Virus record (IMG/VR): IMGVR_UViG_3300045988_075599
Coordinates: 1 to 64,000 of that record
Length of the DNA stretch: 64,000 nt
DNA from: a virus
Direction: 5' to 3' (one strand)
Shown here piece after piece: positions 7,620-36,755 of the stretch. How positions within the stretch are numbered: position 1 is the stretch's first letter; each line of letters opens with the position of its first letter. Made by a program: the position numbers and the translations under genes. The notes beneath the pieces were generated by a model. That model was not told the origin of the DNA. It saw only the letters and a list, made by a program, of their open reading frames with translations, and made no database searches.

Positions 7620-8695
7620 AGTTTAACACCTCTCATTCTTTCGTTCCAGTAGTCATAAGCCTTGTATTCCTGCTCGGTCATAATTTCTTCATTACATCCG
7701 TAATCAAACGTACCATTGATGTCATAGTTAGCGGAGTAGCACAGTGGGAGTTTTGTATTACCCATCTGTTTGTTGATTCTAATCTGTCCTTCTCTAAATT
7801 TTCTAAACAATTCTTCATCTACGCCATGGTCAACATCTCCAATAGAGTATTTGTGGTTTGTACTTGTGGCGAACCTGTGGCAAGGATATAGCTTACCATC
7901 CATACCAAGCGTTACCATGAAAGCACCACTACCACAGTAACCGACTTCCATGTTTAGAGACTCTTCTTTGATTGGACGTGGGCGACCGATTGGTCTTACT
8001 TTTGTATATAACTTCCTATGGAAAACAAAGTCAATGACTTTTCTCAGCTGCCTGTAATATTCTTCTGCATCTTCTTTTGTCCAATGTTCTTCATAGATTG
8101 GATTTGCCCACGGCTGAAATCCTAATTGGATTTGGTTAATCAACATATCCCCAAGCATTGGCAACGTGTCTCTGTTCATCGTTCCTTTTACCAAGACCTG
8201 TGCATATCTATGCCTCCACCACTGTAGGTTCTTTAAGATTTCATCATAAGAGCCTTTGCCATCTGGGTGGACTCTATTCATGTCATGTGCTTTCTTACAT
8301 CCATCCAAAGACAATCCAACAGTAATACAAGGATAATCTTCAAGAAACTTCTTTACTTTCGGAATAGAGAATAATGTTCCGTTGGATGTTGTAAAGCACT
8401 GGAACCTGTGTTCTGTAATCCATGGATGTTTAAGTCTTGTCCCGACTTCAACAAACTTATTGATGGCGTGTGCCATCAAGTCCGTTTCCAGTAACGCTTC
8501 TCCACCAATAAAATCCAAGATAATGCTATCAAACTTAGAGTACCTTTTATCAGAATATAAGATATCAATGAACTTATCAATGTTGTCTACAGTATTCTTG
8601 TTGTACTGCTTGTTAGCCTCATAGCAATATTTGCACGCAAGGTTACATTTATCCGTAATAAAAATTGTTGCCGTTAAAGGAATACTTCTTTTCAC
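7616..8695 (-). CDS. radical SAM enzyme, anSME/SPASM-twitch-like peptide-modifying type (rSAM-1)
   Basis: ITDKCNLACKYCYE gives CX3CX2C at aa 17-24. GGEALL-type motif present. C-terminal CGSGAFMVTLGMDGKLYPC gives GX4C. Confidence 0.85.
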   Translation of the reverse strand: MKRSIPLTATIFITDKCNLACKYCYEANKQYNKNTVDNIDKFIDILYSDKRYSKFDSIILDFIGGEALLETDLMAHAINKFVEVGTRLKHPWITEHRFQCFTTSNGTLFSIPKVKKFLEDYPCITVGLSLDGCKKAHDMNRVHPDGKGSYDEILKNLQWWRHRYAQVLVKGTMNRDTLPMLGDMLINQIQLGFQPWANPIYEEHWTKEDAEEYYRQLRKVIDFVFHRKLYTKVRPIGRPRPIKEESLNMEVGYCGSGAFMVTLGMDGKLYPCHRFATSTNHKYSIGDVDHGVDEELFRKFREGQIRINKQMGNTKLPLCYSANYDINGTFDYGCNEEIMTEQEYKAYDYWNERMRGVKL

Positions 8696-10503: not shown

Positions 10504-10511
10504 TTCTCACC

Positions 10512-11018
10512 TCACGTAGGAAGCATCTTACCAATGCTAGTAGCGAAATCCATTTCAGAACCCATGTCGAACCCATGGTTTTGCATAGCCAAAGAAATAA
10601 CAATCTGGGCAAGCAGATTTACTAAGGCAGGTTTCATAAAATGAGAGCCTGGCAGTAATTCATCGGACAGCTCACCTACTCTTGGTGGCTGCTTCCAATA
10701 CCTAAAAGTGCATGGCAAATCCCCATAACACACAACCTTATCTCCATCCCTATATACTGGCGGTACACCTGTTGGAGTCCCATAATCTTTTGGAATGTAT
10801 TCCTCTTTGCTATCCATCGTAAGCCAGCCAGCGGCTTCGTCATAATCTTTTTGAATCATGACTTGCCATACCATATTGATTGCATCATTGATATAGGCAA
10901 TCAATTCTTGGTCTGTGTATGCAATTTCAGAGGCATCAGCAATTCTTTCTTTAATCGCGAATCTCTGAATAAACTTTTCGACGGTCATGTTCTGAAGATA
11001 GTCTGGTTTCTCAGCCAT
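10512..11018 (-). CDS. head-tail connector/adaptor-like protein (paralog 3)
   Basis: 168 aa. Carries the YTDQELIAYINDAINMV motif shared with the two upstream genes. Positioned between capsid and tail spike. Confidence 0.45.
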   Translation of the reverse strand: MAEKPDYLQNMTVEKFIQRFAIKERIADASEIAYTDQELIAYINDAINMVWQVMIQKDYDEAAGWLTMDSKEEYIPKDYGTPTGVPPVYRDGDKVVCYGDLPCTFRYWKQPPRVGELSDELLPGSHFMKPALVNLLAQIVISLAMQNHGFDMGSEMDFATSIGKMLPT

Positions 11019-11476
11019 TAGCTACCAGCCCCCTGTCCCTGTTGCACTTGCTGCCCTTGCATGGGGTCTGCCTCAAGGACAGTGGCATCAATAAGGCGTT
11101 TAAGCTGCCAATCTCTATAGAACTGAACTTTGTCTGTCAGAAGCTTAATCTTCGGACGCATAGCGAAATATCGAACAATCATAGGGCATGGATACTCTTG
11201 GTCTAACAATTCCATATTTACCGTCTCCCCTTCTTCAGTAAAGGCGATAGGGTACTGTCCTACAAACTCAATAAAATCACTTGGGCGCTCCATTGTCTGT
11301 CCAGCTTCAATCTGAAACTCTTTAACAAATTCTGGAGTTTTACTATCCGAACATTCAAGAGACACCGTATCAATGGCGTTGTTAAGGCAATAGATGAGTT
11401 CTTCGTCAGAGTATTTCAACTTAGACATATCGTTAAGTTTCTGACGTACCTTAATCAGTAGTTGGTTTACTGTCAT
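11018..11476 (-). CDS. head-tail connector/adaptor-like protein (paralog 2)
   Basis: 152 aa. Carries the YSDEELIYCLNNAIDTV motif. Confidence 0.45.
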   Translation of the reverse strand: MTVNQLLIKVRQKLNDMSKLKYSDEELIYCLNNAIDTVSLECSDSKTPEFVKEFQIEAGQTMERPSDFIEFVGQYPIAFTEEGETVNMELLDQEYPCPMIVRYFAMRPKIKLLTDKVQFYRDWQLKRLIDATVLEADPMQGQQVQQGQGAGS

Positions 11477-15657: not shown

Positions 15658-15733
15658 TGGCACGGGTTGCTGGAATCGAACCAGCGTATTGTAGGGTCAA
15701 AGCCTACCGCCTTCACCGCTTGGCTAAACCCGT
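15658..15733 (-). tRNA. tRNA-Gln: tRNA-Gln (anticodon UUG), CCA encoded
   Basis: Hand fold: acceptor ACGGGUU/AACCCGU, D arm GCC-AAGCGGUGAA-GGC, anticodon arm GUAGG-CUUUGAC-CCUAC, T arm GCUGG-UUCGAUU-CCAGC, discriminator G, CCA. Confidence 0.85.
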
Positions 15734-20236: not shown

Positions 20237-20488
20237 TTACACCCCTTTCTTTAAGGTTTCTAGGATAAAACGGGCGAATTGATCCATGCAACTTGTGTTT
20301 CTTGTCCCACATTTGTGCCCCAGAAACATAATTGCGGTAGTTTTGGCGTCTTTGCCGTCTAAAAGTTTAGCGATGGCAGACAAATTTCCCTGACAACCGC
20401 CGACAAAAGAGATATTTTTGAGTTTACCGCCCTCGATATCAAAGGAAATTTCTTTGCTACACACACTATTAGGTTTATAAGTATACAT
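20237..20488 (-). CDS. TSCPD-domain small protein (TIGR03905-like 4-Cys family)
   Basis: 83 aa. MYTYKPNSVCSKEISFDIEGGKLKNISFVGGCQGNL...GHKCGTRNTSCMDQ matches my memory of this family. Confidence 0.65.
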   Translation of the reverse strand: MYTYKPNSVCSKEISFDIEGGKLKNISFVGGCQGNLSAIAKLLDGKDAKTTAIMFLGHKCGTRNTSCMDQFARFILETLKKGV

Positions 20489-20696
20489 TTTGCACCTCCT
20501 AAGTGATATAAGAAGAGAGAGAAAGAGAGAGATATGGAGATTCCTTTAGTATGGTAAAGGAATATGTAGATAGGGGCTTATATTTTTCTTGAGACTTGCA
20601 TCTACGCGGTCGCGAGCGAGCGTGGGCATGCCAGACTGAAGCCCCACCCCCGTGGGGGGATGGGTATGGGGTGGCATGGAGGGCTGCACGCCCATG

Positions 20697-20752
20697 TTGT
20701 GCACTTGAATATATAAAATGATACAGAAGGAAGGAACAAATCAATCCCTTCC
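20697..20752 (+). promoter_or_regulatory. repeated promoter-like element R1 plus hairpin
   Basis: TTGTGCACTTGAATATATAAAATGATACAGAAGGAAGGA matches R2 at 36 of 39 positions and is followed by the GGAAGG..CCCTTCC hairpin. About 45 nt upstream of the CDS at 20797. Confidence 0.5.
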
Positions 20753-21231: not shown

Positions 21232-21245
21232 AGCTAGCAAGAGAG

Positions 21246-21264
21246 AGGGGCGTAAGCCCCTTTT
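21246..21264 (+). terminator. intrinsic terminator
   Basis: AGGGGC-gtaa-GCCCCT hairpin followed by TTTT. Confidence 0.6.
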
Positions 21265-21282
21265 CTCTTTATCTATTCCCTT

Positions 21283-21334
21283 TTGTACACTTGAGTATAT
21301 AAAATAATACAGAAGGAAGGATGAAATACCTTCC
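21283..21334 (+). promoter_or_regulatory. repeated promoter-like element R2 plus hairpin
   Basis: TTGTACACTTGAGTATATAAAATAATACAGAAGGAAGGA followed by the GGAAGG..CCTTCC hairpin. Upstream of the small ORF at 21372. Confidence 0.5.
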
Positions 21335-21371
21335 AATGTGTTAGCCCGCAAGGGCGGAAAGGTAGGCTACT

Positions 21372-21503
21372 ATGAAGGTTATGGTAGAAGTGTACGAGCA
21401 GGTACATGGGCAAATCAACGTTGCCCGTACGCCAATGGAAATGCTGTTCATGGACGTTTCCATCGCCGTCAAGGCGTTCGATAGGGTATTCCCTACGGAA
21501 TGA
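21372..21503 (+). CDS. small hypothetical protein (43 aa), not in ORF track
   Basis: MKVMVEVYEQVHGQINVARTPMEMLFMDVSIAVKAFDRVFPTE. Sits between R2 and a strong terminator. The SD is weak. Confidence 0.35.
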   Translation: MKVMVEVYEQVHGQINVARTPMEMLFMDVSIAVKAFDRVFPTE

Positions 21504-21515
21504 CGGCAAGCAAGA

Positions 21516-21538
21516 GGGGGCGGAAACGCCCCTTTTTT
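21516..21538 (+). terminator. intrinsic terminator
   Basis: GGGGCG-gaaa-CGCCCC hairpin followed by TTTTTT. Confidence 0.75.
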
Positions 21539-21711
21539 CATGTCTATAAAAAATAAAATTTTTCTTCTGTGCTCAGCCATTCTTCTACCAATTTTTCCCG
21601 CTGACTATAACGCGCGACGCGCCTCGTGCGTAGGGCAAGCTCTTAGGCTAGGGATAGACATGAGGCAACCTACACCTGCCACGCAGGGTGAGGAAGGTAT
21701 ATAGGAGAAGA

Positions 21712-21770
21712 AGGGATAGGAATAGGATTTTCATAGGATTTTAGGGTATTTTATAGGTTTTTTGGATTCA
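21712..21770. repeat. phased TAGG(A/G)TTTT-type repeats (~10-11 bp period)
   Basis: Read directly: ATAGGAATAGGATTTTCATAGGATTTTAGGGTATTTTATAGGTTTTTTGGATT. Confidence 0.8.
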
Positions 21771-21880
21771 GAATCGGCAATCACATAATCGTAGAGGAAA
21801 ACCACAACATAATCATAATATAATAAATAATTGAATATGGCTAACTAATTACAATCACAACTTCCTACTCCTATACCGCT

Positions 21881-21900
21881 ATACTACTATATACTACTAC
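21881..21900. repeat. tandem 10-mer ATACTACTAT/ATACTACTAC
   Basis: Read directly. A related TATATACTAATACT follows. Confidence 0.8.
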
Positions 21901-22129
21901 TCCCTATATACTAATACTTAAAAGGTGGGCTAATAAATAATCTTTCGCCGTTTTACATTAGGATTTCTGCCAGCTTTCACTCACGAATTAAATTCGATTT
22001 CCCACGAAGAAACATGGACTTTTTGCCCTTATATCTAGCTTTCTATTCGAGCGGTTTATCCTCACTAGTGCATTAGTGCAGGTACGTGGAATGATAGGGA
22101 AAACTGGGAGGTTGACAATCCACCGATGG

Positions 22130-22500
22130 GGGCTTTTGTGCACTTAACCTGACATGATGATTTGCCAAGGTTGAAAGGCAGTCAACCAACGGCAGACAAC
22201 TGAATATCCCGAACTGTATAAGCCTTGAGAGCTGATATTATGTTCGGGTAAGAATTTGAGGTAGACCAGCACTTGGTGCATAAAAGCCTGGTAAACGCCA
22301 ACAGAATCAATTAGCAGTGCCCAAAAGGTAGAAGTGAAGCGTACTCTTCAAATCTACTTACGGATAAGCTGCTAATAATCCCTGGTTGCTCTGGGTGAGT
22401 GAGCAACAGTGAGTGTACACCTAAACCAATACTTGGTAGTGTATTCAGTTTTTCTAGTGGGTGTTTTCCTAATAAAAGCCCACTTCCATTTGTTTAATTT
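22130..22500 (+). ncRNA. candidate structured RNA (class unknown)
   Basis: No ORF of 60 aa or more on either strand. Nested hairpins at 22208..22248, 22310..22376 (containing 22328..22357), 22385..22407 and 22456..22484. Strand and ends are not established. Confidence 0.3.
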
Positions 22501-22852: not shown

Positions 22853-23335
22853 ATGCAAATCAAAAAGGCAAATTACAGTATCAACGGTTATCCAAATAGC
22901 CACTTTTTTATTAGCGAAACTGGTCTCACTACGACCACTCTTACTCAGATGAGTAAATTCACACAGGGCGAAGTAATCGAAATCAATGCCCCTGTATGGC
23001 AGCTTTGCGATTCTCGTCATGAGAACCCCATTGCTAATATGGGGGGCATTTTCCCTAAATGCCTTGCTAATCCACTGGATATGCGAGGTATGAAATCGGA
23101 CATTCTCGATAAAATCAGAGGGAAATATGGATTCGGTGACACGCTCTTTTGTGTAGTCACTGGTATGTCCTCAGCGTTGATTTCGTTAGTCAATGCTTGT
23201 TCAGCATTAGATGTAAGGCTGCGTCTATTGCACTATGATGTTGTCCATGATTGTTATAAGATGCAGCTCGTGGATAACTATTACCTCGAGGAGAAGATAA
23301 CGCTCATTAAAAAAGTAATGAGCCGAAAGGTATAG
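22853..23335 (+). CDS. hypothetical protein (160 aa)
   Basis: ORF track, AAAGGAGA SD. Confidence 0.6.
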   Translation: MQIKKANYSINGYPNSHFFISETGLTTTTLTQMSKFTQGEVIEINAPVWQLCDSRHENPIANMGGIFPKCLANPLDMRGMKSDILDKIRGKYGFGDTLFCVVTGMSSALISLVNACSALDVRLRLLHYDVVHDCYKMQLVDNYYLEEKITLIKKVMSRKV

Positions 23336-23439
23336 CAAAAAGGCTTCTAAAGGGTTGTGCCATAAACAGCCCTATTCCATGGGGAGCTTCCCCCAAAAAA
23401 AATATGTTTTGCCCATTGGGGCAGAAAGGAGCCATTATC

Positions 23440-23793
23440 ATGGCAAATGCAAAGATTGAAAAACGTGATGGAAAGTTGTTCCTCGTCGCAGAATTGACGA
23501 AAGAGACCAGACAGTACGCAAGAGACGGCAGAGGACACTCTGCTGGCGATACGTATGAAGCGTTCATCGCTCATACCAGCGGTCTTGAATATGAGGGAAA
23601 GGTCTACAGATTCGACCTCTCTATGCCGATGAAGGCATGGAAGTCCGCTGATGATGCAGCTAAGAAAAAGCTCCTCGCTACGCTGAAAAAGCTCAGCGCA
23701 GATAAAGCGGCTGAAATGAAAGACGCTTCCGTTGAGGAAATCACAGAAGCCATTAAAGAGCATGTGGTAAGCATGCTCGCTGGTATCCAGTAA
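23440..23793 (+). CDS. hypothetical protein (117 aa)
   Basis: Track ORF trimmed to the ATG at 23440 with a GAAAGGAG SD. Confidence 0.6.
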   Translation: MANAKIEKRDGKLFLVAELTKETRQYARDGRGHSAGDTYEAFIAHTSGLEYEGKVYRFDLSMPMKAWKSADDAAKKKLLATLKKLSADKAAEMKDASVEEITEAIKEHVVSMLAGIQ

Positions 23794-23809
23794 TAGAGGG
23801 GGTATTTCT

Positions 23810-24076
23810 ATGAAATACTCCAAAATGGCTTTCGTTAAGGCTATTCTGCACGGTTGTGCAGATAGCTACTTCATTGATAGCAAAGGTAAGGTTCGCACCA
23901 GAACCGCGACCGTTGCATACAACAGAGTAATTGTACGAGATGGCTTGTCTCGTACAAAATACTCTATTCCTGGCTTCATGTACATGTTAGCTAGGACTAT
24001 GGGCGTACCGCCCACTTATGATAGCGTAGTTCGTGGTCTTGGCACTTACGCTAATGTTTTGGCAGAAGGGAGATAA
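23810..24076 (+). CDS. hypothetical protein (88 aa)
   Basis: ORF track, AGAGGGGG SD. Confidence 0.6.
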   Translation: MKYSKMAFVKAILHGCADSYFIDSKGKVRTRTATVAYNRVIVRDGLSRTKYSIPGFMYMLARTMGVPPTYDSVVRGLGTYANVLAEGR

Positions 24077-24080
24077 AACC

Positions 24081-25010
24081 ATGCCAGCAACAACTGACCT
24101 TTTATTCGCTAATTTCTCCAATAAACTTGGGAGAATTATTACAGGGAGAAACTGCTCCCTTTTGGATGATGGTCGTCAGAGACGCCATTTCGGTGTCGAA
24201 ATTGAGGCGTGCGATTACGCCCGTGACTCCTACGTGGATGACGAGACTGCGAGCGATGCTACCTATGAGCTTTTCTCGCCATTTCCTGGTTGCGAAGAGT
24301 TGTCTGAAATCAAAGACGATTGTTCTTTGGTTGGAAATCATTTCGAGATGGTAACATCTCCAATGACAATTACCCTGCTTAGAAGCCTTAATTGGGAAGA
24401 CTTTTTCAGGGTACTTCGGAATGCCGATTATAAGCAGACTGACTTCAATGAGTACGATAAGGCTGGCATTCACGTACATGTGAATCGCAGGTCACTTCAT
24501 CATCCATTTGAGGCGGCTGTAAACGCACTGGCGTTTATCACAGAGAACGATGACACTATTCGTCGATTTGCACGTCGTTCTCAGAGCCAGTGGAATGATT
24601 GGTGTGGAACTCCATATCGGTTGTACAATGACATCGACGAATACCTTGACGAGATTAAAAACGGCGACTATGACGCCTTTGGATGGGAATATACATCCAA
24701 TATTCGGGTTGATGATACTAGATACCAGGCTGTCAATTTCTGCTCTTCAAGAACATGGGAATTGAGAATTTTCAATTCTACGCTGGAAGCTGAGGATATG
24801 CGTAATATTCTGGATTTTGCCGACGCCTTATGGACATTGGCTGATACAGACCATTACGATATGAGCCTCGAGTCTATGCATAATAAGCTGCTGGAGCTTG
24901 GTAATCCAATCGCAGCCAACCAGATGTATGAGCCGCCGAAAGATACTCATGCATCCGATAACTACGATTATCGCGATGACGATGAATATGATGAAGATGG
25001 CGATTGGTAA
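24081..25010 (+). CDS. amidoligase-like protein 1 (glutamine-synthetase/GCS-fold, Amidoligase_2-like)
   Basis: Track ORF trimmed to the ATG at 24081. Motifs HFGVEIEA, GIHVHVNRR and WELRIFNS are the same triad as in 26921..29410. Acidic D/E/Y tail. Confidence 0.6.
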   Translation: MPATTDLLFANFSNKLGRIITGRNCSLLDDGRQRRHFGVEIEACDYARDSYVDDETASDATYELFSPFPGCEELSEIKDDCSLVGNHFEMVTSPMTITLLRSLNWEDFFRVLRNADYKQTDFNEYDKAGIHVHVNRRSLHHPFEAAVNALAFITENDDTIRRFARRSQSQWNDWCGTPYRLYNDIDEYLDEIKNGDYDAFGWEYTSNIRVDDTRYQAVNFCSSRTWELRIFNSTLEAEDMRNILDFADALWTLADTDHYDMSLESMHNKLLELGNPIAANQMYEPPKDTHASDNYDYRDDDEYDEDGDW

Positions 25011-25128
25011 ATGATATACGCTAGGGATTTCCCTAGCAATCGAAACAAGGGGGTTATCCCCTTGTCTAGTGGAACCAGCCCACCACTACTGATGAGATAG
25101 GCTGTTGTTATGAAAGTAGGTGATTGGC

Positions 25129-25716
25129 ATGGAACAAATTAATAACCTCAGCGTAGGTGATTTGGTATACGTTCCAGAATATGGTATGGGTATTGTATGG
25201 CGACATCATGACCATTTGGAAGACATTTTCGACGTAGCCTTTAGTGGCGAATCAATCATGTACACCAAAACAGGCGACGAAGCAACATTCGACAAGGTGT
25301 CGCAAACATATACCTCAACATATGACGAGGAGTTATCTGTTAAGCGATTTGCTCCGATTGTAGGACGCAGATTGACTAAAGGGATGCAAGTTTATAATGT
25401 GGTCTATGGTATTGGTATTGTGATTATTGCGTCTCCCCCAGATGACGAACGGCTATACGGTAGAGCGGTCTCGTATTTCGCCAGCGGTGACATAAACAAA
25501 GAAACATGCTATAATGGGCAATTTTTGCATGATTACGGTGTCAATTTGTCTAATGACGTATTTCCTATGTATAACTTTAGACCGTTTGCTCACTCTAAGC
25601 AAGATATAGAACGAGCTGTATGTGAAGCGTCATTAAAAGATTTGTCAGAACGATATGTTGAACTCCTTGAACGCTATAAAAAACTTGGTGGAGACGATAG
25701 TGATTATAGGATATAG
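25129..25716 (+). CDS. hypothetical protein with two SH3/CarD-like GD.V....G.G.V repeats
   Basis: ATG at 25129 after AGGTGA. Repeats VGDLVYVPEYGMGIV and KGMQVYNVVYGIGIV. Confidence 0.55.
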   Translation: MEQINNLSVGDLVYVPEYGMGIVWRHHDHLEDIFDVAFSGESIMYTKTGDEATFDKVSQTYTSTYDEELSVKRFAPIVGRRLTKGMQVYNVVYGIGIVIIASPPDDERLYGRAVSYFASGDINKETCYNGQFLHDYGVNLSNDVFPMYNFRPFAHSKQDIERAVCEASLKDLSERYVELLERYKKLGGDDSDYRI

Positions 25717-25824
25717 TTAATGAGCCTATTGAGTGTGGATAAAGCAATTTATCCATACTAATAGCCCCATTAACTTAGTAGGGGTAGTATTTAGTGGCTA
25801 CAGAAGTAGCAGAAAGAGGTGCTT

Positions 25825-26901
25825 ATGTGCGTTATCGCTTTTTATCCGAAGGGCTTGCCGTTTAACAATGGCGAATTGAAAAACTGCTTCAAGAATAATC
25901 CCGATGGAGCAGGTGTAATGTGGCAGGATGGTGGTAAAGTCCATATCAAGAAGGGTTTCATGAAGCAGAAAGCCTTTTTTAAGTTCCTGAAAACTCTTCC
26001 TACAGACGTTGATAGAGTGCTTCATTTCAGAATCGCTACGTCTGGCAAGGTAAGCGGTGCATGCTGCCATCCATTCCCAGTCGCAAACGATTTCAAGACA
26101 ATGATGCAGACTGAGATTGAAGTTCCAGTCGCTTACGCCCATAACGGTGTGCTGACTGATTACACACCTAAAGAAGGGATGAAATCTCCGTTCTCTGATA
26201 CGATGGTCTTTGGTAAAGAAGTTCTCGACCATTTGGTTCGGAAACATGTTGACCTTTTCGACCCAGTTATCGACGTGATGATTGAATCGACTATTGATGG
26301 CGACAGAATGGCTATCATGAATGGCCATGAGGTCGTTACAATGGGGAAATTCATCACGAGTACAGTCAGTGGCGCTCAGTATTCTAACGGCTCTTACTCT
26401 TACGATAGAAGTCTGTGGAAATCGTATACCTACGGTGGTGGGTATTACGATACTTGCGGATACTATCACGTCTGCTCTAACGCGAATACAACCGCACCCA
26501 AGAGAGAATCGAGAAGGAAAGACACAAAAGATTCCAAAAGCACCACTATTGTGAAGGAAGCTGACTACGGATTCTCTTGTGTCAGTTTCATGGCAAAGAT
26601 TACGTTTAATCCATCAGACCATGGACTTGCTGGTTACACCCGTAACGACTATGAACAGTTTGTTTTGGACAATCTGGAAGCGTATAACGTCTATGGTCTC
26701 GACCTCAATATCTCGGCTATAGGAGAACACTCTATGACATTCACAGTCGAATGTATGATGTATGCAGATGACGCTCTCGCACAGTTCTACAATGTCTACG
26801 AAGGGAAAACCTTCAGTGACGTATGGGAAAGCAACGATTCGTTACATAGTGTCAGTGTAGACATCGCAATATCGGATGTTAATTTTGACACCATTGCGTA
26901 A
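25825..26901 (+). CDS. class-II (Ntn) glutamine amidotransferase-like protein with C-terminal extension
   Basis: ATG at 25825 gives an MCVIAF.. N-terminus, with Cys2 as the nucleophile position. NPDGAGVMW motif present. Confidence 0.65.
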   Translation: MCVIAFYPKGLPFNNGELKNCFKNNPDGAGVMWQDGGKVHIKKGFMKQKAFFKFLKTLPTDVDRVLHFRIATSGKVSGACCHPFPVANDFKTMMQTEIEVPVAYAHNGVLTDYTPKEGMKSPFSDTMVFGKEVLDHLVRKHVDLFDPVIDVMIESTIDGDRMAIMNGHEVVTMGKFITSTVSGAQYSNGSYSYDRSLWKSYTYGGGYYDTCGYYHVCSNANTTAPKRESRRKDTKDSKSTTIVKEADYGFSCVSFMAKITFNPSDHGLAGYTRNDYEQFVLDNLEAYNVYGLDLNISAIGEHSMTFTVECMMYADDALAQFYNVYEGKTFSDVWESNDSLHSVSVDIAISDVNFDTIA

Positions 26902-26920
26902 TTAGAAAGGAGACTAATAC

Positions 26921-29410
26921 ATGCCTAGATATTGTCAATTCACAGAGAATGTCCGATTCCATCGCTCCTTGGCTAGTATGCCACACGAACATGGGATTGT
27001 AGGAGTCGGACTTGTTAGTTCTCGTAGTCGTTCATTGAGCCATAACGTCAGAACTGTTTTGCGTGATGTACAGGATTGTGTTGACCAGCACCAGTTCCTG
27101 CCAGATAACTTTATTTGGTGTACTCACGAAGAATATGAACATAACTGGCCGTATTTGGCGAACGAGTTACTGAGAACACGCCCGACTACGACGGATACTA
27201 GCCCGATTGTCCCTGCATTAGATATGCCAAAGTTTTCGATAGGTATTACGAAGAATTTGGATATTATTACAAGAGACTCGAATGGTCGTTGGATTTATCT
27301 TGAGAAAACTGGTAACACTGTTGAGGTAGTTCTCTCTGATGTTGCACCTGATTGTCTCGTTGTTTATCGCACTGGGAATAGCGATGCATCAAGACACCTC
27401 TCGGAGAACAGGTATTGGGTAACTGTTCGTGGCGGTAATTATGTAATCGTAAGACCGCCAATTAACTGTCCAAATGATATCCATGTCCCATACGGTTCAT
27501 TTTTGAACTCGCGATTCGTATTCCATGGTGACAATAGCTACGTCATGGAGTCGGTGCTTTCAATCCACGTGTTCCTTGTTGGAAACGAAGAAATCACGAC
27601 GTTTTCGTATCCACGGAGCGGGGTGTACGGACAGCTTGTCCTTCATGAGAATGGCACCAAAGTATACATGACACTTACGCCAGTTTACCCAGATATTTTC
27701 GGTTGCAAACTTACACGTAAGTACAAAGTCCCTATTATGTCTGCCTTTGATGTGTCACCCTCTGCGCTTTGTGGCAGATTGTCTGATACATACAACATCA
27801 ATACGGTTGATGATGAGTACGTAGACTGCTTGAACGGTGACACTCTCACGTATGGCTCGCACCCTACACTGTGCCACGGAATACCGACAAGAGAGGCAGC
27901 ATTCAGAAACAATTTTGTGACTGAAGATGGCGTTCATCGTTCTGTGTGGCTTCGTTCAATGTCTGTTGACGAAGATGGCAATAAGGTGTACAGGAACTTC
28001 GATGACGGATTCATGATGAACATGCTGAGAAACGTTCCGTTTAACGCAATACGAAATTGTCTTATGGAGTACGAAGGGGAAAGCTATCGGTGGGACGGCA
28101 GAAACTCCGCGTGGATTCGTGCGGATGATGCCGTATATATTCCACCAAGAGCTTCACGAAGCGCACTCGATATCTTTACACATAGTCGGTTCGTCCGGTG
28201 CGTAGAATGCCCGTTGTGTCATTCAAAGACTATGGTAGGCGGTAGGTATACGTTCTCCTATTTCATTGATGGGAAGAAGTATTCTAAACCGATGTGCGAC
28301 CGCTGCGTTTCTATCCTTTTCGATGGTAATCCGCTGGATATTCCGATTGAAGATGGCAGTGTATTGCACGTAAATAGCTGTGACGTATGCGGCTACAATG
28401 GAGAATATACGTTGTCAAAGTGGTGGGTACGTGTATCTGGTGAAGAAGAAGGTTTCATCGACGAGTATGCAGTATGGAATCACGATACACAGCAGTGGAA
28501 ACTGGTAGATGATGAAGATGGTACGCTGTATCTTGCTTTCACATCCAGAGGATATATTCTCACCGAAAGATACTGCACTCACATCAACGGGTATTTCTAC
28601 AAGCCAGAACCTATATTCTTCAAGGGTAATAACGAGAACACGCACAAGTTCTTCGGTATTGAACTTGAAGTTATGGATGGCGGTGAAAGTTCTGACAATG
28701 CAAAAGAAGTATGCAGTAACCATGAGGAACTGTATGCAAAACATGATGGTTCGTTGACGAACGGTATGGAATTGGTATCACATCCATGTACTGTTAGTTG
28801 GCACTTAACTCACCTGTGGACTGATGTTTTAACAAGGCTCCGCACGTTGCGTTATCATGCTCGTAACGGCAGTGGTATTCATGTACATGTATCGAGAAAG
28901 TATTGGGAAAACAATGGTGGAGCTTGTCACATTGCAAACTTGATTACGTTTTGCGATACGAACAGGGAAGCACTGAGGCTTTATGCGAATAGAGAGAAAG
29001 AAACGTTCGACCACTGGACACATAGCTACATGTCTCCATCTGCTACAAAGAAAACCGTCTCTACAACGTTAGGAACGTTAGGTGATACCGAAGAAGCAAT
29101 GCAGGATATGTACGAAAGATACAGTGGAACTACAGACCATTATTCTGTAGTCAATCTGAGCAATGCTTCAACGGTAGAGATTCGAGCATTTGCAAGTACG
29201 CTGAGTATAACTCGTATGCATAGTATCATCCAGTTCGTTGACGTATTGACGGAGCTGTCTACCGAAGCAACGTTAGGCAATCCGATTACGTTCGGACTTA
29301 TCCAGACAAGAGCACAGGATAAAGGATATACCGCCCTGTTACAAGACCCGAAGTTCGCCGAAGCTATCGAGGAAACTAACCGTCATGTAGATACTCGTAT
29401 TTGCTCCTAG
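26921..29410 (+). CDS. large amidoligase-like protein 2 (about 560-aa Cys-rich N-terminal region plus C-terminal amidoligase domain)
   Basis: 829 aa. C-terminal motifs FFGIELEV, GSGIHVHVSRK and VEIRAFAST. N-terminal CxxC pairs (CVECPLCH, CDRC, CDVCGY). Confidence 0.6.
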   Translation: MPRYCQFTENVRFHRSLASMPHEHGIVGVGLVSSRSRSLSHNVRTVLRDVQDCVDQHQFLPDNFIWCTHEEYEHNWPYLANELLRTRPTTTDTSPIVPALDMPKFSIGITKNLDIITRDSNGRWIYLEKTGNTVEVVLSDVAPDCLVVYRTGNSDASRHLSENRYWVTVRGGNYVIVRPPINCPNDIHVPYGSFLNSRFVFHGDNSYVMESVLSIHVFLVGNEEITTFSYPRSGVYGQLVLHENGTKVYMTLTPVYPDIFGCKLTRKYKVPIMSAFDVSPSALCGRLSDTYNINTVDDEYVDCLNGDTLTYGSHPTLCHGIPTREAAFRNNFVTEDGVHRSVWLRSMSVDEDGNKVYRNFDDGFMMNMLRNVPFNAIRNCLMEYEGESYRWDGRNSAWIRADDAVYIPPRASRSALDIFTHSRFVRCVECPLCHSKTMVGGRYTFSYFIDGKKYSKPMCDRCVSILFDGNPLDIPIEDGSVLHVNSCDVCGYNGEYTLSKWWVRVSGEEEGFIDEYAVWNHDTQQWKLVDDEDGTLYLAFTSRGYILTERYCTHINGYFYKPEPIFFKGNNENTHKFFGIELEVMDGGESSDNAKEVCSNHEELYAKHDGSLTNGMELVSHPCTVSWHLTHLWTDVLTRLRTLRYHARNGSGIHVHVSRKYWENNGGACHIANLITFCDTNREALRLYANREKETFDHWTHSYMSPSATKKTVSTTLGTLGDTEEAMQDMYERYSGTTDHYSVVNLSNASTVEIRAFASTLSITRMHSIIQFVDVLTELSTEATLGNPITFGLIQTRAQDKGYTALLQDPKFAEAIEETNRHVDTRICS

Positions 29411-31011
29411 AGAAATACCAATTAGATGGCGTTAGTCTTATGAAAAGAAAGGACACATTCATACAAGCTGACAGTATGGGTATGGGAAAGACTGCACAAG
29501 CAATCGAGTACATGAAACAAACTACCGACTGTCACTTTATTGTAGTGTGTCCTTCTTCTCTTAAATCTAACTGGTGTCGCGAACTCAATGACTGGTTAGG
29601 CATAACAGTTAAACCCGACATCTACACGGGGGATATTATTGTGACTAACTACGAGAAAGTAGGACGCATGATAGATATGATTGGTGATTATGTGTATAAT
29701 TTTAAGGGGGTAATATTTGACGAAGCACACATGATTAAAAATGTATACGCTGGTAGAACGTATGAAGCCAAACGCCTTGTCGATAAGGTTGGTAATCCAA
29801 TGATGTTGACAGGCACACCAATACTGAATAGGCCTAACGATTTGTTAGGCCTATTGTACGTTGGTGGCAAGCTATCAGAGTTCGGTGGCATTGATGCATA
29901 CACACGGCGATACATCCCCAATGTAGAAAAAGATAATGCCATTTTCTATTGTAACTTTGCACATCTCGATGAGCTACACGAAAAGATAGAACCTTTTGTT
30001 TGTCGCCGTCGATGGTGTGATATTCGCCGCCCAACCTTCCCGATTAAGAAAACGGAAGTGACGCTAGGTAACTTTGCTAACGCTCCATTGTCATCAGTCA
30101 ACATCACTAACATACAGAAGGTAGAGACTGAGGTAATGAAACGTAAGCTACCTCTAGTTGTACGCTGGATTCAAAGGGATTACGATACGCATCATGAGCC
30201 GTTGGTTGTGTTTGCTAATCATCGGCAAATGATAGACGTATTAAGTGCGGTGTTTCCTAATAGCACTGTAGTGTATGGTGGTATGACGTACAAAGAAAAG
30301 GAACAGAATGTACAGAAGTTCCTGAATGGTGACGCCGATATTATTCTATGCTCGTTAGCTTGTGCTGCTTGCGGACTTAATTTAGTTCGCTCTCATAGAG
30401 TTGTGTTCGCAGAGTTCCCTTGGACTAAAGGGATATACGAACAGGCTATTGCTAGGTGTGCAAGACGAGGGCAAACTAAGACTACAGAAGTGTTCGCATT
30501 GATTATGGAGAACAGTTACGATAGGTATCGACTAGAACAAATGAGATGGAAGTCTGCAATAGCCGATGATATTATTGACGGAAAGGATAAGAAAGATGGA
30601 AGATATTATCTTGGTAATTTACCTCATAGTGTCCTTGCTTGTCTTGAAGATGGTAGTATAGATACATCACCATACTTCGGCATGGATATTTACTCCGATG
30701 AATTTACCATAGCTATCGGAGAGATGTCACGCGATTGGTTGCTTGCCAATACGCAAGTGAAAGGTGATGAGGATATATACTGGGAGTGTGTGTTCTGCTG
30801 TTTCACGCAATATGTATTCGGCATGGCTATTAGTATGTTGTCGCAAGGTTTGTCATATGATACGTCTAACCTAAGCAACATGAATTTACTAGCGGACATG
30901 TCTGGCTATGGTTTGAAAACATTGCAAGCTAGATACACATGGTTCCTTAATCGGTGTAAGCAGTTAGGATTTGACCAGTCGTGGATATTCCTAGTTCGAT
31001 TCAATTCGTAA
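29401..31011 (+). CDS. SNF2-family ATPase/helicase
   Basis: YQLDGV, ADSMGMGKT (motif I), FDEAHMIKN (motif II), and a helicase C region (..QAIARCARRGQ). TTG start overlaps the upstream stop; there is no ATG before the Q-motif. Confidence 0.8.
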   Translation: MLLEKYQLDGVSLMKRKDTFIQADSMGMGKTAQAIEYMKQTTDCHFIVVCPSSLKSNWCRELNDWLGITVKPDIYTGDIIVTNYEKVGRMIDMIGDYVYNFKGVIFDEAHMIKNVYAGRTYEAKRLVDKVGNPMMLTGTPILNRPNDLLGLLYVGGKLSEFGGIDAYTRRYIPNVEKDNAIFYCNFAHLDELHEKIEPFVCRRRWCDIRRPTFPIKKTEVTLGNFANAPLSSVNITNIQKVETEVMKRKLPLVVRWIQRDYDTHHEPLVVFANHRQMIDVLSAVFPNSTVVYGGMTYKEKEQNVQKFLNGDADIILCSLACAACGLNLVRSHRVVFAEFPWTKGIYEQAIARCARRGQTKTTEVFALIMENSYDRYRLEQMRWKSAIADDIIDGKDKKDGRYYLGNLPHSVLACLEDGSIDTSPYFGMDIYSDEFTIAIGEMSRDWLLANTQVKGDEDIYWECVFCCFTQYVFGMAISMLSQGLSYDTSNLSNMNLLADMSGYGLKTLQARYTWFLNRCKQLGFDQSWIFLVRFNS

Positions 31012-31027
31012 ACACGACATACTAAAA

Positions 31028-31060
31028 GGGCGTAACTCGTATGGGTTACGCCCTTTTTTT
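31028..31060. terminator. bidirectional intrinsic terminator between convergent operons
   Basis: GGGCGTAAC-8 nt-GTTACGCCC hairpin followed by T7. A 4-A run on the other side. Confidence 0.75.
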
Positions 31061-32794: not shown

Positions 32795-35700
32795 TTACAC
32801 CGCGCACCCCGACGCACCACAGGAATCACACTGCCAGCAATGACCCGATAACTTTACGTTCTTGCTATGACATTCTGGGCATTCCATTTCTCTTGGTCTA
32901 TCCTCGACTTCTACTTCCTGAATAATTGGCTCATGCGAATCAAGAGTATACGCATCGTTCAATGTCATACCTACTGCAAACCCTACGCTATCTGCGTTCA
33001 GCTTGAATAACTGTTTAATGATAGCATCAATGCTTACACCACACCGCATCGAGAGTGAGATAAGTCTAGTGATACCATCGACTTCATCCTTGTGGCGTTC
33101 ACTGTTTACGAAAATCTCAAACAGTTTATCGTCCTTCCAGTTGACTGTGATATACAATTTAGTACCGTCGCCCATCACCTGTGTATAGGTTTTACCAACG
33201 AGTGTACCAATATCACCACGGCGTTCTGGTTTAAGACTGTCATGAAGGATGGTAGGTTTCTCTTCCTTCTTACTCAGCCCAAGGATATTACCTCTCGCGC
33301 AGTTGTCTCTGAATACAGTGATACCTTTACACCCTACCTGCCATGCCGCATCATAGATAGCGAAGATGTCATCAGGTGTAGCAGACTCTGGCAGATTAAC
33401 CGTAGAACTGATGGAGTTATCTACGTACTTCTGCATAGTTGCCTGTGTCAGTATACGTCGAATCGGTTCAACATCATGAGACTCGATAACGTATGGGAAC
33501 ATCTTCTTAATATCTTCTGCACTCGTATCCATTGGCAGCTCGTTTCGTGCAAGCAAGTCCTCGATAGAATGTGAGAATACTCTGAACGTCTTACCCTGTT
33601 CTTCAAGTTTGTGCGTAGTTCTTTCGTAGTACAGTTTATAGATTGGTTCACAACCACCAGTATATCTACCAGCCAGCAAACTAATACTACCAGTTGGAGC
33701 AATGCTAATAAGCTGTCCGTTAAGCAAGCCGTGTTCCTTCACACATTTCTTCGTGTCATCATCAAGGGACTGGAAGAATTTAGAATCAGCCGTCTTGTCG
33801 TAGTCATATTCGCCGAACGTATTGAAATAATCCTGACACAGTAAAGCCGACGCCTTCACTGCTTCATTCGTAAGACAGTGAAACAACTTACGAGTAAACT
33901 CCAATGCCTTATCGCTCCCGTATTCCAGTCCAAGTTCCACAAGCATGTCAGCATAACCGAACACGCCTAACCCAATCGGTCTCCAGTCGCGGATATACTT
34001 ACGGTTCTCTTCATATGGCTGCTTATCATACGAGTAATCAAGTGCATCGTTAAGTGCTCGAACTGCAACATGTACTGTATCAATGAACGAATCCCAGCAG
34101 AACTTACCAGTGCGCATGTGTACGAACTTAGCTAAGTTGATACTACCTAAGTTGCATGAACCCCACGCACCCAGCGGAAGTTCGGCGCAGTTGCCAGTCA
34201 GCATACCATTAGCAATGAACGTATGGTTCTTAGGTTCATTCATGCAATATACTTTATCAGCCATCGGAGCTTCCGAGATAGACACTACGGTAATAAACCT
34301 AGATGCATCTCTGTTCGGGTAACATTCGGTGTCAACCCTATGAGTATGAAGTCCGAGTTTATTCAGCTTGTTCATATACCATGATGCGATGGTCAGTCGG
34401 TAACAGTCCTGGCAATGATACTTCTTGTACCCGCCTTTACCATCTGGCATAAGTCTATCTGCCGCCGCCCTTACACGAGATACTGTCGAATGAATACCAA
34501 GCGTAGTGAGCATGAGTCTCAGTCTATCCATAAACGGCTTATTGATGGACGTAATACTTACGCTACCATCCTCGGAGTTACGGCTCCCGTCAGTGTCAAT
34601 CAGTCCAGCTAAGAAATTCAGTCTATCGCTAATGCTAGTATCAGACATTGGGATATAAAACTTTTCTTTCAGTACACCCTTCGGCACAAGTACCACATCT
34701 CTTCTGTCTTCGTGCTTCACATCTTCACTATCGATATAGTTAATCAGATGTTTCTTGCCATCATACAATGCGATGCTACGTCTGCCAGTAGTACCATCAC
34801 CAGCATACACACCCTGTGTATACATCTGGCTACCAGTGCTATCGATACTTGCGTTATCCTTACCTACTACAGGGAGATGGCACTTAGCTAACTTTGTACC
34901 AACCGTCAAGTCTTCTGCTTTAATACGTTCACCATTAGCCAGTACCCATTTGTGATAATAGGTACAGTCAACAGATGAACCATCTGAAAATTTAACAGTA
35001 AGCATAGGCATGTCAGTGCCAGTCAGCTTAGGTGTAGTCAAACTCCACTCCTCACCATTCCATACTTCTACTTCTTTATCCGCTAATGTTTCAATAGGCA
35101 TGTAGCCATACTTGGTAAGGATTAAAGTGTCACCTCTTACACATGGGTTTGTCGTAAGGATATGGAAGTTATCATATCCAGACAACAGGTTGTAGTCATT
35201 GAACTCGTCAATGAATAATGCACCTGGGTCTCCCCAATTCCACTGACATTCGCAGAACTTCTTAAAGAACTCACGAGCCTTAATTGTTTTCTCGATATGT
35301 TCGCCTGTAGACTCCACATCAAACTTCAGTGTGTATGGTTTGTCACAATCTACCGCAGTCATAAACTCATCGGTGAATTTAATAGACACGTTCATAGACT
35401 GGAGCCTGTCACCTTTCATCTTGGTATCAAGCAACTCTTCGATATCAGGATGAGAACAATCAATAGATACCATGGTTGCTCCGCGTCTACCATGCTGACT
35501 GATAACGTTACCAGTCTCGTTGAACAAATCAAGGAACGATACAGCACCAGTAGAACTCTTAGCTGCGTTGTTTACTTTAGCATTACGTGGACGGAGAATG
35601 GAAATGTCAGTGCCAACTCCACCACCCTTACTAAAGATACGAGCCATGTGTTTGTTCGCTTCGTAGATTGCTTCGATAGTATCATCTTCGATAGGAACTA

Positions 35701-35950
35701 CATAGCAGTTACTACCTGCCGCATTGATTTCATTCTTGCGTCCTGCAAGGTACATTGTTCTTCCGCCGAAGAAGAAAGTACCACTAGCTAACAGGCACTC
35801 AACCTTATCCCTAATGCTTTCGTCACAGATACTAGCTACCCTCTGACAAAATACAGCAGGGGATTCCATGTCATCCTTCGCATACTTAGCACGGAATACG
35901 TTGTATGCTACTTCATCTTTTGCCCAAAGCACTTCTTCATTGCACATCAT
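32795..35950 (-). CDS. nrdJ: ribonucleotide reductase, class II-like (B12-dependent), interrupted by an intein
   Basis: GGGVG motif. Extein junction TTNP|C..N|CAELPL recreates the NPC.E active-site motif. C-terminal CPECHSKN..CWQCDSCGASGC Zn-ribbon-like tail. Confidence 0.75.
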   Translation of the reverse strand: MMCNEEVLWAKDEVAYNVFRAKYAKDDMESPAVFCQRVASICDESIRDKVECLLASGTFFFGGRTMYLAGRKNEINAAGSNCYVVPIEDDTIEAIYEANKHMARIFSKGGGVGTDISILRPRNAKVNNAAKSSTGAVSFLDLFNETGNVISQHGRRGATMVSIDCSHPDIEELLDTKMKGDRLQSMNVSIKFTDEFMTAVDCDKPYTLKFDVESTGEHIEKTIKAREFFKKFCECQWNWGDPGALFIDEFNDYNLLSGYDNFHILTTNPCVRGDTLILTKYGYMPIETLADKEVEVWNGEEWSLTTPKLTGTDMPMLTVKFSDGSSVDCTYYHKWVLANGERIKAEDLTVGTKLAKCHLPVVGKDNASIDSTGSQMYTQGVYAGDGTTGRRSIALYDGKKHLINYIDSEDVKHEDRRDVVLVPKGVLKEKFYIPMSDTSISDRLNFLAGLIDTDGSRNSEDGSVSITSINKPFMDRLRLMLTTLGIHSTVSRVRAAADRLMPDGKGGYKKYHCQDCYRLTIASWYMNKLNKLGLHTHRVDTECYPNRDASRFITVVSISEAPMADKVYCMNEPKNHTFIANGMLTGNCAELPLGAWGSCNLGSINLAKFVHMRTGKFCWDSFIDTVHVAVRALNDALDYSYDKQPYEENRKYIRDWRPIGLGVFGYADMLVELGLEYGSDKALEFTRKLFHCLTNEAVKASALLCQDYFNTFGEYDYDKTADSKFFQSLDDDTKKCVKEHGLLNGQLISIAPTGSISLLAGRYTGGCEPIYKLYYERTTHKLEEQGKTFRVFSHSIEDLLARNELPMDTSAEDIKKMFPYVIESHDVEPIRRILTQATMQKYVDNSISSTVNLPESATPDDIFAIYDAAWQVGCKGITVFRDNCARGNILGLSKKEEKPTILHDSLKPERRGDIGTLVGKTYTQVMGDGTKLYITVNWKDDKLFEIFVNSERHKDEVDGITRLISLSMRCGVSIDAIIKQLFKLNADSVGFAVGMTLNDAYTLDSHEPIIQEVEVEDRPREMECPECHSKNVKLSGHCWQCDSCGASGCAV
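34190..35143 (-). mobile_element. intein (318 aa) with LAGLIDADG endonuclease domain
   Basis: Starts CVRGDTLIL (Cys at 35143..35141) and ends FIANGMLTGN (Asn at 34192..34190), with +1 Cys. Internal motifs YTQGVYAGDGT and NFLAGLIDTDGS. Codon positions verified by hand. Confidence 0.85.
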
Positions 35951-36156
35951 AATCTATCGCTAATCCCTTTCTTGTACTTAATTACTTTAATAGAATCGTC
36001 TGTCTTTGGCAGCGGGTACACATGTACTCGCAGGTCTTTGTTTGTCACGTTATCATCTACCAGTTTTTTTACTTCATCCTGGTCGCCAGCTAATCCCACG
36101 CATCTGGGCATGCCTCTGGAATCAAAGACAACAACCGCGTATCCGGTAAGTCGCAT
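35947..36156 (-). CDS. hypothetical protein (69 aa)
   Basis: GGAGG SD. Overlaps the upstream ORF end by 67 nt. Confidence 0.5.
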   Translation of the reverse strand: MRLTGYAVVVFDSRGMPRCVGLAGDQDEVKKLVDDNVTNKDLRVHVYPLPKTDDSIKVIKYKKGISDRL

Positions 36157-36755
36157 CCTCTAGCCTCCACTAATTCCTTAAAATATGGTAATCGTTTATA
36201 CATCCACGCACAGAAGTATCTCCATTCATCTAACTGATGATTGATTCTCTGCGTGTACATCGTCATAAGCTGTAAGTAATTCGTTGTTACTCTTGCTTCT
36301 TCCAACATACCGACTGGCACAGAATAGATTAACTCTTTCTTAATCTTAGGTGGCAGTGGTACTCCCTTGTACTTATCAAGCAGGTCTTCCCTGTACTTAA
36401 TAAAGGCATCAATCACTGGGCTCGTTGTACCAAGTGCGCCAACCTCACTCTGTGCAAAGTCGTATGGTGTCAAGACAAACTTTGGATTGGCGATGTTGTG
36501 CATGATGGACTGGCTCATGACAATCTGGAACCAGTGGTATCTCTGTGCCTGTTGCCACCACTTGACACTAGCAATAATAGAGAACTGAACATTCACACCC
36601 GTAAGCATATTAGCTTCACCGCTATTCAGTGGTTTAGATACAAGGCTCTTCATTACTGTCATGCCGCGGTCAGCACTCAGTTGTGAACCATACGACAACC
36701 CAATAGCCTTCGCCGATTCTTTCAGTCCTGTTACTTTCTCGTCCAGAATAATCAT
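36090..36755 (-). CDS. ThyX-like protein with degenerate active-site motif
   Basis: By eye, ..VQFSIIASVKWWQQAQRYHWFQIVMSQSIMH.. aligns to ThyX ..[30 protein letters not shown].. A later NYLQLMTMYTQR aligns to NARSLMNFLNLR. The RHR and S.RY arginines are replaced. Confidence 0.5.
   Translation of the reverse strand: MIILDEKVTGLKESAKAIGLSYGSQLSADRGMTVMKSLVSKPLNSGEANMLTGVNVQFSIIASVKWWQQAQRYHWFQIVMSQSIMHNIANPKFVLTPYDFAQSEVGALGTTSPVIDAFIKYREDLLDKYKGVPLPPKIKKELIYSVPVGMLEEARVTTNYLQLMTMYTQRINHQLDEWRYFCAWMYKRLPYFKELVEARGCDLPDTRLLSLIPEACPDAWD

Follow-up and report, generated by a model that had tools for sequence, protein, structure and literature searches.

A conserved amidoligase, glutaminase and SNF2 ATPase module in a family of uncultured gut phages

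Described amidoligase cassettes and a new variant

Amidoligases of the Amidoligase_2 family (PF12224) and class-II N-terminal nucleophile (Ntn) glutamine amidotransferases (GATases) occur together in phage gene cassettes, which were reportedly predicted in 2009 by Iyer et al. and which have been annotated in LUZ24-like phages, cluster S mycobacteriophages, OM43 phages and Heliusvirales, none of them with a known substrate. The subject here is a related module at 24081-31011 (+ strand) of a 64,000-nucleotide stretch of viral DNA, positions 1 to 64,000 of IMG/VR record IMGVR_UViG_3300045988_075599, which is referred to as a whole as the window. The four proteins that a preliminary description had noted there, namely two amidoligases, a class-II Ntn glutaminase and an SNF2-family ATPase, are all encoded in this interval. 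Comparison with related metagenomic phages reveals a constant triad: an amidoligase with an N-terminal extension, the GATase and the SNF2 ATPase lie on one strand in every one of about 85 loci with enough flanking sequence, at GATase identities of 36-95%. Whereas the amidoligase/GATase cassette as such is already known, the variant with an N-extended ligase and a constant SNF2 triad is new.

The early cassette of LUZ24-like phages, PaP3, tf and UFV-P2 combines a COOH-NH2_lig protein (PF14395) and an Amidoligase_2 protein with Gn_AT_II, ATP-grasp and AIG2/GGCT (γ-glutamylcyclotransferase) proteins. Like this cassette, the window module places Amidoligase_2 and a class-II Ntn GATase in one uncharacterised, non-structural podophage operon. 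Unlike it, neither the operon nor its neighbours contain an ATP-grasp, GGCT or PF14395 match, the GATase belongs to a different subfamily that Pfam does not recognise and has a C-terminal domain of its own, the main ligase carries an extension of 300-555 amino acids, and SNF2 is constantly linked in the window family. In Xanthomonas phage DES1 (locus L012, 6374-12821), a GATase homologue stands together with a γ-glutamylcyclotransferase, a 308-amino-acid hypothetical protein, an ATP-grasp protein and another protein annotated as a glutamine amidotransferase. Homologous pairs are further found in mycobacteriophage Marvin (cluster S; gp105/gp106) and in Heliusvirales (Christensenellales), where the two genes are adjacent on the same strand; the ligase domains match at E 4e-24 and the Ntn GATases at E 1e-10, with additional links via phrog_22302 and phrog_25883. 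These pairs differ from the window module in having no adjoining SNF2 gene, one ligase and another genome position. That amidoligase and Ntn-GATase genes neighbour each other on phages had been noted computationally, as the preliminary description stated, is borne out by the annotations of LUZ24-like phages and by Iyer et al. 2009, as that study is rendered where others cite it. Its further statement that no experimental function is known agrees with full-text literature searches, which found none for PF12224 proteins or for phage amidoligase/GATase pairs.

More distant parallels come from cellular enzymes. PuuA/PuuD and EgtA/EgtC likewise join a ligase of the glutamine synthetase (GS)/γ-glutamylcysteine synthetase (GCS) fold to a Cys-nucleophile enzyme that recognises a γ-glutamyl amide, and EgtC is itself a class-II Ntn enzyme. 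They differ in that they act on polyamines or thiol-histidine intermediates and have neither accessory domains nor a DNA motor, the homology being at superfamily level. PafA/Dop resemble the module in that a GS-fold carboxylate-amine ligase acts on protein and a glutamine is deamidated before ligation; Dop, however, has the GS fold and not the Ntn fold, no sequence relationship closer than the superfamily is detectable, and no Pup-like small protein was identified in the window operon. With JBP2, DpdE of the Dpd 7-deazaguanine system and methylase-SNF2 fusions of phages and plasmids, the module shares an SNF2 motor encoded with enzymes that could modify covalently, but its matches to these systems are confined to the motor and far below cut-offs, and no base-modifying enzyme was recognised. 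Within this landscape, the window family, whose members stem from human faecal viromes, represents a minimal and strictly conserved version of the cassette, consisting of one ligase, one glutaminase and one SNF2 ATPase, and is thereby well suited as a starting point for experiments.

The triad and its enzymes

The comparison loci, which were searched with the window proteins, comprise 80 IMG/VR loci with GATase homologues at 36-50% identity, together with assemblies. In distant loci, a protein of 435-620 amino acids with a C-terminal amidoligase domain is followed by the GATase and then by an SNF2 protein of about 395 amino acids, and consecutive genes often share stop and start codons (for example 8271-10001, 10001-11131 and 11135-12325 in L023). 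Since the triad is present in all loci with enough flank, it constitutes the core of the module, and the window lineage is derived from it: an extra small ligase has been placed upstream, the big ligase lies between GATase and SNF2, and SNF2 is longer. The small amidoligase is confined to the window's sub-lineage among the loci compared, and the order of the five genes in the interval is identical in relatives whose big ligase is merely 47% identical. Local rearrangements leave the three genes together; in L006 a second ligase lies downstream of SNF2, and some lineages contain inserts of 0.3-3.3 kb. Throughout, SNF2 is coupled to the preceding module gene, which is the GATase in most lineages and the big ligase in the window. 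What varies are the accessory domains. Attached to conserved catalytic domains, the ligase extensions are of at least three types that cannot be aligned with one another; one type is rich in Cys, with numerous CxxC pairs and matches of LIM or zinc-ribbon-like kind, and the GATase C-terminal domains are of several unrelated types among lineages.

The fifth gene, which the preliminary description did not mention, is a 198-amino-acid open reading frame (ORF) at 25120-25716 to which no family could be assigned (gene callers start it at 25129, giving 195 amino acids). It occupies an insert of about 700 nucleotides that is present in L002-L005 and L017 and missing from L013-L016 and L018; in these, about 110 nucleotides separate the small amidoligase from the GATase. 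Relatives without it are nonetheless 89-95% identical in the neighbouring GATase. By this comparison of sequences, the ORF is a dispensable accessory insert outside the module core. It has no Pfam, PHROG, PADLOC or NCBIfam match. A CarD/TRCF-like RNA polymerase binder was considered and rejected: a PDB profile search returned nothing significant, and the ORF lacks family matches and is missing in close relatives. Its product contains two G-x-x-V-Y-x-x-x-Y-G-x-G-I-V repeats, which had prompted the CarD/TRCF idea, and shows a weak likeness to the 3D domain of YuiC (E 0.7).

The small amidoligase (24081-25010, 309 amino acids) consists of a single Amidoligase_2 domain (Pfam E 5.7e-12, 46.5 bits against a cutoff of 22) and an acidic C-terminal tail, and it matches phrog_16683 (E 1e-13), phrog_22302 and phrog_2443. 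The large amidoligase (26921-29410, 829 amino acids), which one public record names 'putative amidoligase enzyme', matches Amidoligase_2 only at residues 598-774 (23.5 bits against the same cutoff) and phrog_16683 at E 1.1e-31. Specifically, its catalytic domain makes up the C-terminal 275 amino acids (28586-29410), and the earlier label of an 829-amino-acid amidoligase applies to this part but not to the first 555 residues (26921-28585), a beta-rich region specific to the lineage. The two catalytic domains are paralogues (26% identity, E 4e-16). Both contain the motif set G-x-E-x-E, DGS..E, G-x-H-x-H, Arg and T-x-E-x-R-x-F that recurs in 17 diverse domains, these two included, in the GS-type form FGVEIE, DCSL..FE, GIHVHV and WELRIF in the small protein and as FGIELE, DGSL..ME, GIHVHV and VEIRAF in the large one. 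The assignment of both proteins to the amidoligase family from shared motifs, made in the preliminary description, is thereby confirmed by Pfam scores above cutoff, by the paralogue alignment and by the wider motif comparison.

The 555-residue extension was modelled by AlphaFold2 (AF2) at a predicted local distance difference test (pLDDT) score of mostly 70-90 and contains an invariant cluster of four cysteines (C430, C433, C459 and C462). HMMER found six matching clusters among 1.84 billion representative proteins, all with the same architecture; no structural analogue was found in PDB or BFVD, and in sequence the extension is unrelated to those of other lineages. The acidic tail of the small amidoligase (24950-25010) reads DNYDYRDDDEYDEDGDW (…DDDEYDEDGDW). 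Its acidity is kept in relatives and the terminal Trp in 3/5, while its length varies; it appears to resemble the C-terminal docking tails of single-stranded DNA-binding protein (SSB) type.

The GATase-like protein (25825-26901, 358 amino acids) comprises a glutaminase domain (residues 1-~197), a disordered linker (~198-247) and a small alpha/beta domain (~250-358) with weak NikR/ACT-like Foldseek matches; no synthase domain is fused to it. Whereas profile searches put both ligases (Amidoligase_2) and both SNF2 domains (SNF2-rel_dom and Helicase_C) above cutoff, as the preliminary description had anticipated, GATase_4 stays below it, with 17.5 bits against 23. No other match above gathering score was obtained with Pfam GATase_6/7, NCBIfam yielded none, and the corresponding PHROG, phrog_25883, is annotated 'unknown function'. 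The catalytic residues are nevertheless intact: none of C2, R69 (HFRIATSG), N107-G108 (HNG) and D125 (SD) varies among 37 homologues, whose identities reach down to 28%, and a profile of the homologues matches the YafJ-like structure 1te5 over exactly these motifs. The AlphaFold model (pLDDT 84 overall, >90 over most of residues 1-190) finds its best PDB matches by Foldseek in GlmS (3ooj, 1jxa) and PurF (1gph, 1ao0), with E values of 2e-5 to 8e-4 and a probability of 1.0. Because the invariant C2/R69/N107/D125 set and the fold match of the model to GlmS/PurF coincide, the assignment to a divergent subfamily of class-II Ntn glutaminases is supported despite the Pfam score, in line with the preliminary description, which had recognised the Cys directly after the initiator Met. 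The gene calls of the window GATase and of 36 aligned homologues all start with MC, and an in-frame GTG lies two codons upstream of this start. In GlmS and PurF, a conserved Arg and Asp hold the alpha-carboxylate and alpha-amino groups of glutamine. Both are kept in the window protein, whose substrate is on this ground more likely to be free glutamine or a γ-glutamyl compound. More than 1,100 homologues share the N-terminal domain, and only that domain. Although NCBIfam and the Pfam gathering cutoff miss this subfamily, its members can now be annotated confidently.

The SNF2-family ATPase (29401-31011, 536 amino acids) scores 77.5 bits for SNF2-rel_dom (E 1.3e-21) and 51.1 bits for Helicase_C (E 1.9e-13), and it displays MGMGKT as Walker A, DEAH, and QAIARCARRGQ as motif VI, with invariant columns that hold in 10 family members. 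The motor spans residues ~1-400 and is followed by a C-terminal extension of about 135 amino acids without an assigned role. Its PDB sequence matches are Rad54 (best), DDM1 and ISWI, and it also matches PHROGs of SNF2-methyltransferase fusions. Membership in the DpdE, ZorD or DrmD defence families was rejected, as the similarity is generic, limited to the motor and far below the family cut-offs. The gene begins at a TTG that overlaps the end of the large amidoligase by 10 nucleotides. A gene caller picked ATG 29440 on one contig; the family motif L-x-x-[YH]-Q-x-x-G-V, however, lies upstream of that ATG, and four diverged relatives likewise have a TTG here that overlaps or abuts the stop of the preceding gene, which supports the TTG start at 29401 that the preliminary description had proposed. 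SNF2 is probably translated in coupling with the preceding ligase, to judge from this overlap. A programmed frameshift that would fuse amidoligase and SNF2 was rejected as unnecessary, since in relatives the two genes are distinct and the TTG start of the second abuts or overlaps the stop of the first.

Possible targets of the module

The explanation that we tentatively favour is that the module is a glutamine- or γ-glutamyl-based amide-ligation system directed at a host-specific macromolecule, probably a DNA-associated protein. From what is known of these families, we infer the following chemistry. The N-terminal Cys of the Ntn enzyme would attack a γ-amide, either in free glutamine or in a γ-glutamyl-X compound, whose alpha-carboxylate and alpha-amino groups would be held by the Arg and Asp of the pocket, and the enzyme would then free ammonia for its partner or remove or transfer the γ-glutamyl group. 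Using ATP, the GS/GCS-fold amidoligases would turn a carboxylate into an acyl-phosphate, to which they would then couple either that ammonia or a different amine. The target would be a protein sitting on DNA (a nucleoid, transcription, defence or phage replisome protein) and not the DNA bases, and the purpose may be host takeover or counter-defence. Two features suggest such a target. The accessory domains on ligase and GATase are of unrelated, lineage-variable types, which points to a host-specific macromolecule over a common metabolite, and the genes are co-transcribed and often translationally coupled with a minimal SNF2 translocase, which makes a protein on DNA the most likely substrate. 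Moreover, none of the three enzyme types has lost its catalytic residues, and a strong terminator directly after SNF2 closes the unit. GS-fold ligases are able to act on proteins, as PafA and Dop do, and peptide tagging was reportedly predicted for the amidoligase family by Iyer et al. in 2009. In the passages in which later papers of the same group cite Iyer et al. 2009, it stands for COOH-NH2 ligases as peptide ligases and for ligases predicted to attach amino acids to proteins of chromatin. A peptide or amide tag on proteins, one of the two roles that the preliminary description offered, is possible.

Several observations weigh against this explanation, most of them concerning SNF2. The ligase/GATase pair occurs without SNF2 in Marvin (gp105/gp106), a Heliusvirales phage, Xanthomonas phage DES1 and LUZ24-like phages. 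Conversely, among 71 new IMG/VR loci (flanks of up to 10 kb on each side) that encode the next-closest SNF2 homologues, which are longer forms at ~30-35% identity, 69 have neither ligase nor GATase. The distant SNF2 protein of Cellulophaga phage phiST belongs to a recombination module, and the window itself encodes a Rad52-like protein, RusA and exonucleases near SNF2. Hence the link does not extend beyond one phage family, and there it is a matter of gene order, as judged from genomes whose overall synteny is conserved. In its favour, neither rearrangements nor insertions have broken up the group of three genes, and SNF2 is coupled to the module gene before it. The proposal of the preliminary description that the four proteins work as one machine is accordingly weakened: SNF2 is constant within the family, but outside it the pair and the SNF2 homologues occur apart. 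In addition, the catalytic domain of the large ligase was not modelled with confidence (AF2 pLDDT mostly <50 for residues 550-829, and fold searches with this low-confidence model gave no significant match), no substrate was identified for the module, and for most characterised pairs of a GS-fold ligase and a GATase-like hydrolase, PuuA/PuuD and EgtA/EgtC among them, the substrates are small molecules. An alternative that we rate only slightly lower is that the pair serves small-molecule γ-glutamyl or peptide metabolism, for example on a polyamine or thiol conjugate, and that SNF2 is an unrelated Rad54-like motor that shares the transcription unit. The metabolite substrates of those characterised pairs, the SNF2 homologues without ligase or GATase, the phiST recombination module and the retained residues for binding free glutamine or γ-glutamate agree with it, as do the DES1 and LUZ24-like homologues, which sit with ATP-grasp and γ-glutamylcyclotransferase genes in a set resembling the γ-glutamyl cycle, and the best PDB match of SNF2 to Rad54 in a genome with a Rad52-like gene. 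Large lineage-variable accessory domains on both enzymes would, however, be unusual for common-metabolite enzymes, and the triad is strictly kept, often with shared stop and start codons, despite local rearrangements. At the opposite end stands the rather unlikely possibility that the triad is a single DNA-tracking machine that adds amino acids or amides to DNA-bound host proteins or to specific DNA sites, in which the lineage-variable accessory domains would choose the target. If true, it would constitute a previously unseen ATP-driven, glutamine-dependent viral 'chromatin' modification for takeover or counter-defence. Cooperation of SNF2 with the ligases would thus define a new type of DNA-coupled covalent modification; otherwise, the module is an ordinary uncharacterised phage cassette beside a recombination helicase.

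The preliminary description had also raised an amide-type hypermodification of DNA bases, which the data make decidedly unlikely. In such a scheme, bases exposed by SNF2 would receive an amino acid or amide from the ligase, with ammonia coming from the GATase, and the product would shield the DNA from nucleases. SNF2 motors accompany base-modifying systems such as JBP2 and DpdE, and the window SNF2 generically matches DpdE models. Pfam matches to amidoligase and GATase have been found beside thymidine hypermodification genes on viral contigs (Lee et al. 2021, PMC8989533), and ATP-dependent amide ligation onto a DNA base is known for CmoY, which ligates glycine to 5-carboxymethylcytosine (PMC12783734). 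CmoY has an AsnB-like fold and is not a PF12224 protein, and it was set aside as a precedent for this ligase family. Canonical DNA, moreover, offers the ligase no carboxylate, and no handle-making enzyme was recognised in the ~70-kb genome: Pfam, PHROG and NCBIfam scans of the module ORFs and of every ORF of at least 100 amino acids in 20.2-49.3 kb, with Pfam for the ~6 kb outside the window, recognised no hydroxymethylase, 5-HMUDK, aGPT-Pplase, TET/JBP, CmoA/X, DpdA or methyltransferase, although small unannotated ORFs could escape these scans. The only odd nucleotide enzyme is a ThyX-like protein at 36090-36755 (-) that scores 25.4 bits, just at the Pfam cutoff, and strongly matches phrog_6721 ('unknown function'); it lacks the canonical RHR…S motif, reading QRYHWFQIVMSQS instead, and on this evidence may not be a normal thymidylate synthase. 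Furthermore, the window is extremely poor in restriction-type palindromes. GATC occurs 8 times against 250 expected (z −19.7), CCGG 5 times against 81 and GGCC 28 times against 109; when 4-mers and 6-mers are ranked by depletion, the first seven of the former and the first ten of the latter are without exception palindromes, and TTTAAA, AGTACT, TTCGAA, GTTAAC and CTTAAG are absent. To our knowledge, phages with globally modified DNA lack such palindrome avoidance. The depletion implies DNA that is exposed to type II enzymes and therefore argues against global hypermodification, although this test is indirect and compatible with rare or site-specific marks. Very improbable, too, is a role in modifying the phage's own proteins (amidation or cross-linking of replisome or virion) or the envelope, by amidation of peptidoglycan precursors as by MurT/GatD, with SNF2 incidental. 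MurT/GatD are indeed a ligase and glutaminase pair that amidates a peptide stem (PMC3267633), and the SSB-like acidic tail of the small amidoligase could dock on replisome proteins. Yet the window proteins are unrelated to the Mur ligase fold or to class-I GatD, the operon has no signal peptides or envelope genes, and the module lies far from the structural genes, in a block beside the replication genes. Amide ligation onto a host-specific macromolecule, probably a protein on DNA, stays our tentative preference, with the lineage-variable accessory domains as the feature that points to a host-specific target.

Genome setting and neighbouring features

The window covers most of the genome of an uncultured tailed gut phage of about 70 kb, and the same 829-amino-acid protein is found on contigs of 68-71 kb; INPHARED and GenBank phages include no near relative or near-identical cultured phage. 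It encodes an SU10-type portal and a large terminase, and its replication genes specify a DnaE-type polymerase, a DnaG-DnaB primase-helicase and the Rad52-like protein, with RusA and exonucleases also near the module. The interval 24081-31011 is part of a + strand block that points away from the terminase gene on one side and towards the oppositely oriented replication genes on the other. Upstream of this block lie two 86% identical copies of a 50-nucleotide promoter-like direct repeat (20692-20741 and 21278-21327, both +), which is possibly the promoter of the + strand unit, with a terminator-like hairpin between them (21239-21269). Downstream of the second copy, a stretch of about 1.1 kb (21330-22400) lacks any long ORF, Rfam found no match in it and relatives have no called gene there; three small genes (22853-24076) abut the small amidoligase on its upstream side. 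At the other end, directly after SNF2 and between convergent genes, an intrinsic-terminator-like hairpin (31024-31057, +) consists of a 15-bp stem and a T-run.

The preliminary description called the cluster an early operon, a label that reflects its position only. A virion RNA polymerase would have backed it, and a 4017-amino-acid ORF at 49291-61344 (-) was considered for this role and found unsupported: it has no significant Pfam, PHROG or NCBIfam match, and no polymerase domain was detected. The ORF, directly upstream of which an SLT-transglycosylase protein is encoded (61362-62837, -), possibly specifies a virion polymerase or else an internal protein that the virion ejects. The replicative polymerase (43223-46123, -) is of the bacterial DnaE type (PHP and pol III alpha), which, as far as we know, is unusual for a podophage-like genome, and a DUF3310 'nucleotide kinase'-like protein is encoded near it (47390-48025, +). 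The ribonucleotide reductase (32795-35950, -; 1051 amino acids) is split by a LAGLIDADG intein and ends in a TSCPD domain, while that of relative L005 has no intein and measures 733 amino acids; a separate TSCPD protein of 83 amino acids lies beside the terminase (20237-20488). The sole tRNA of the window, tRNA-Gln(TTG), is encoded among the structural genes (15658-15733, -).

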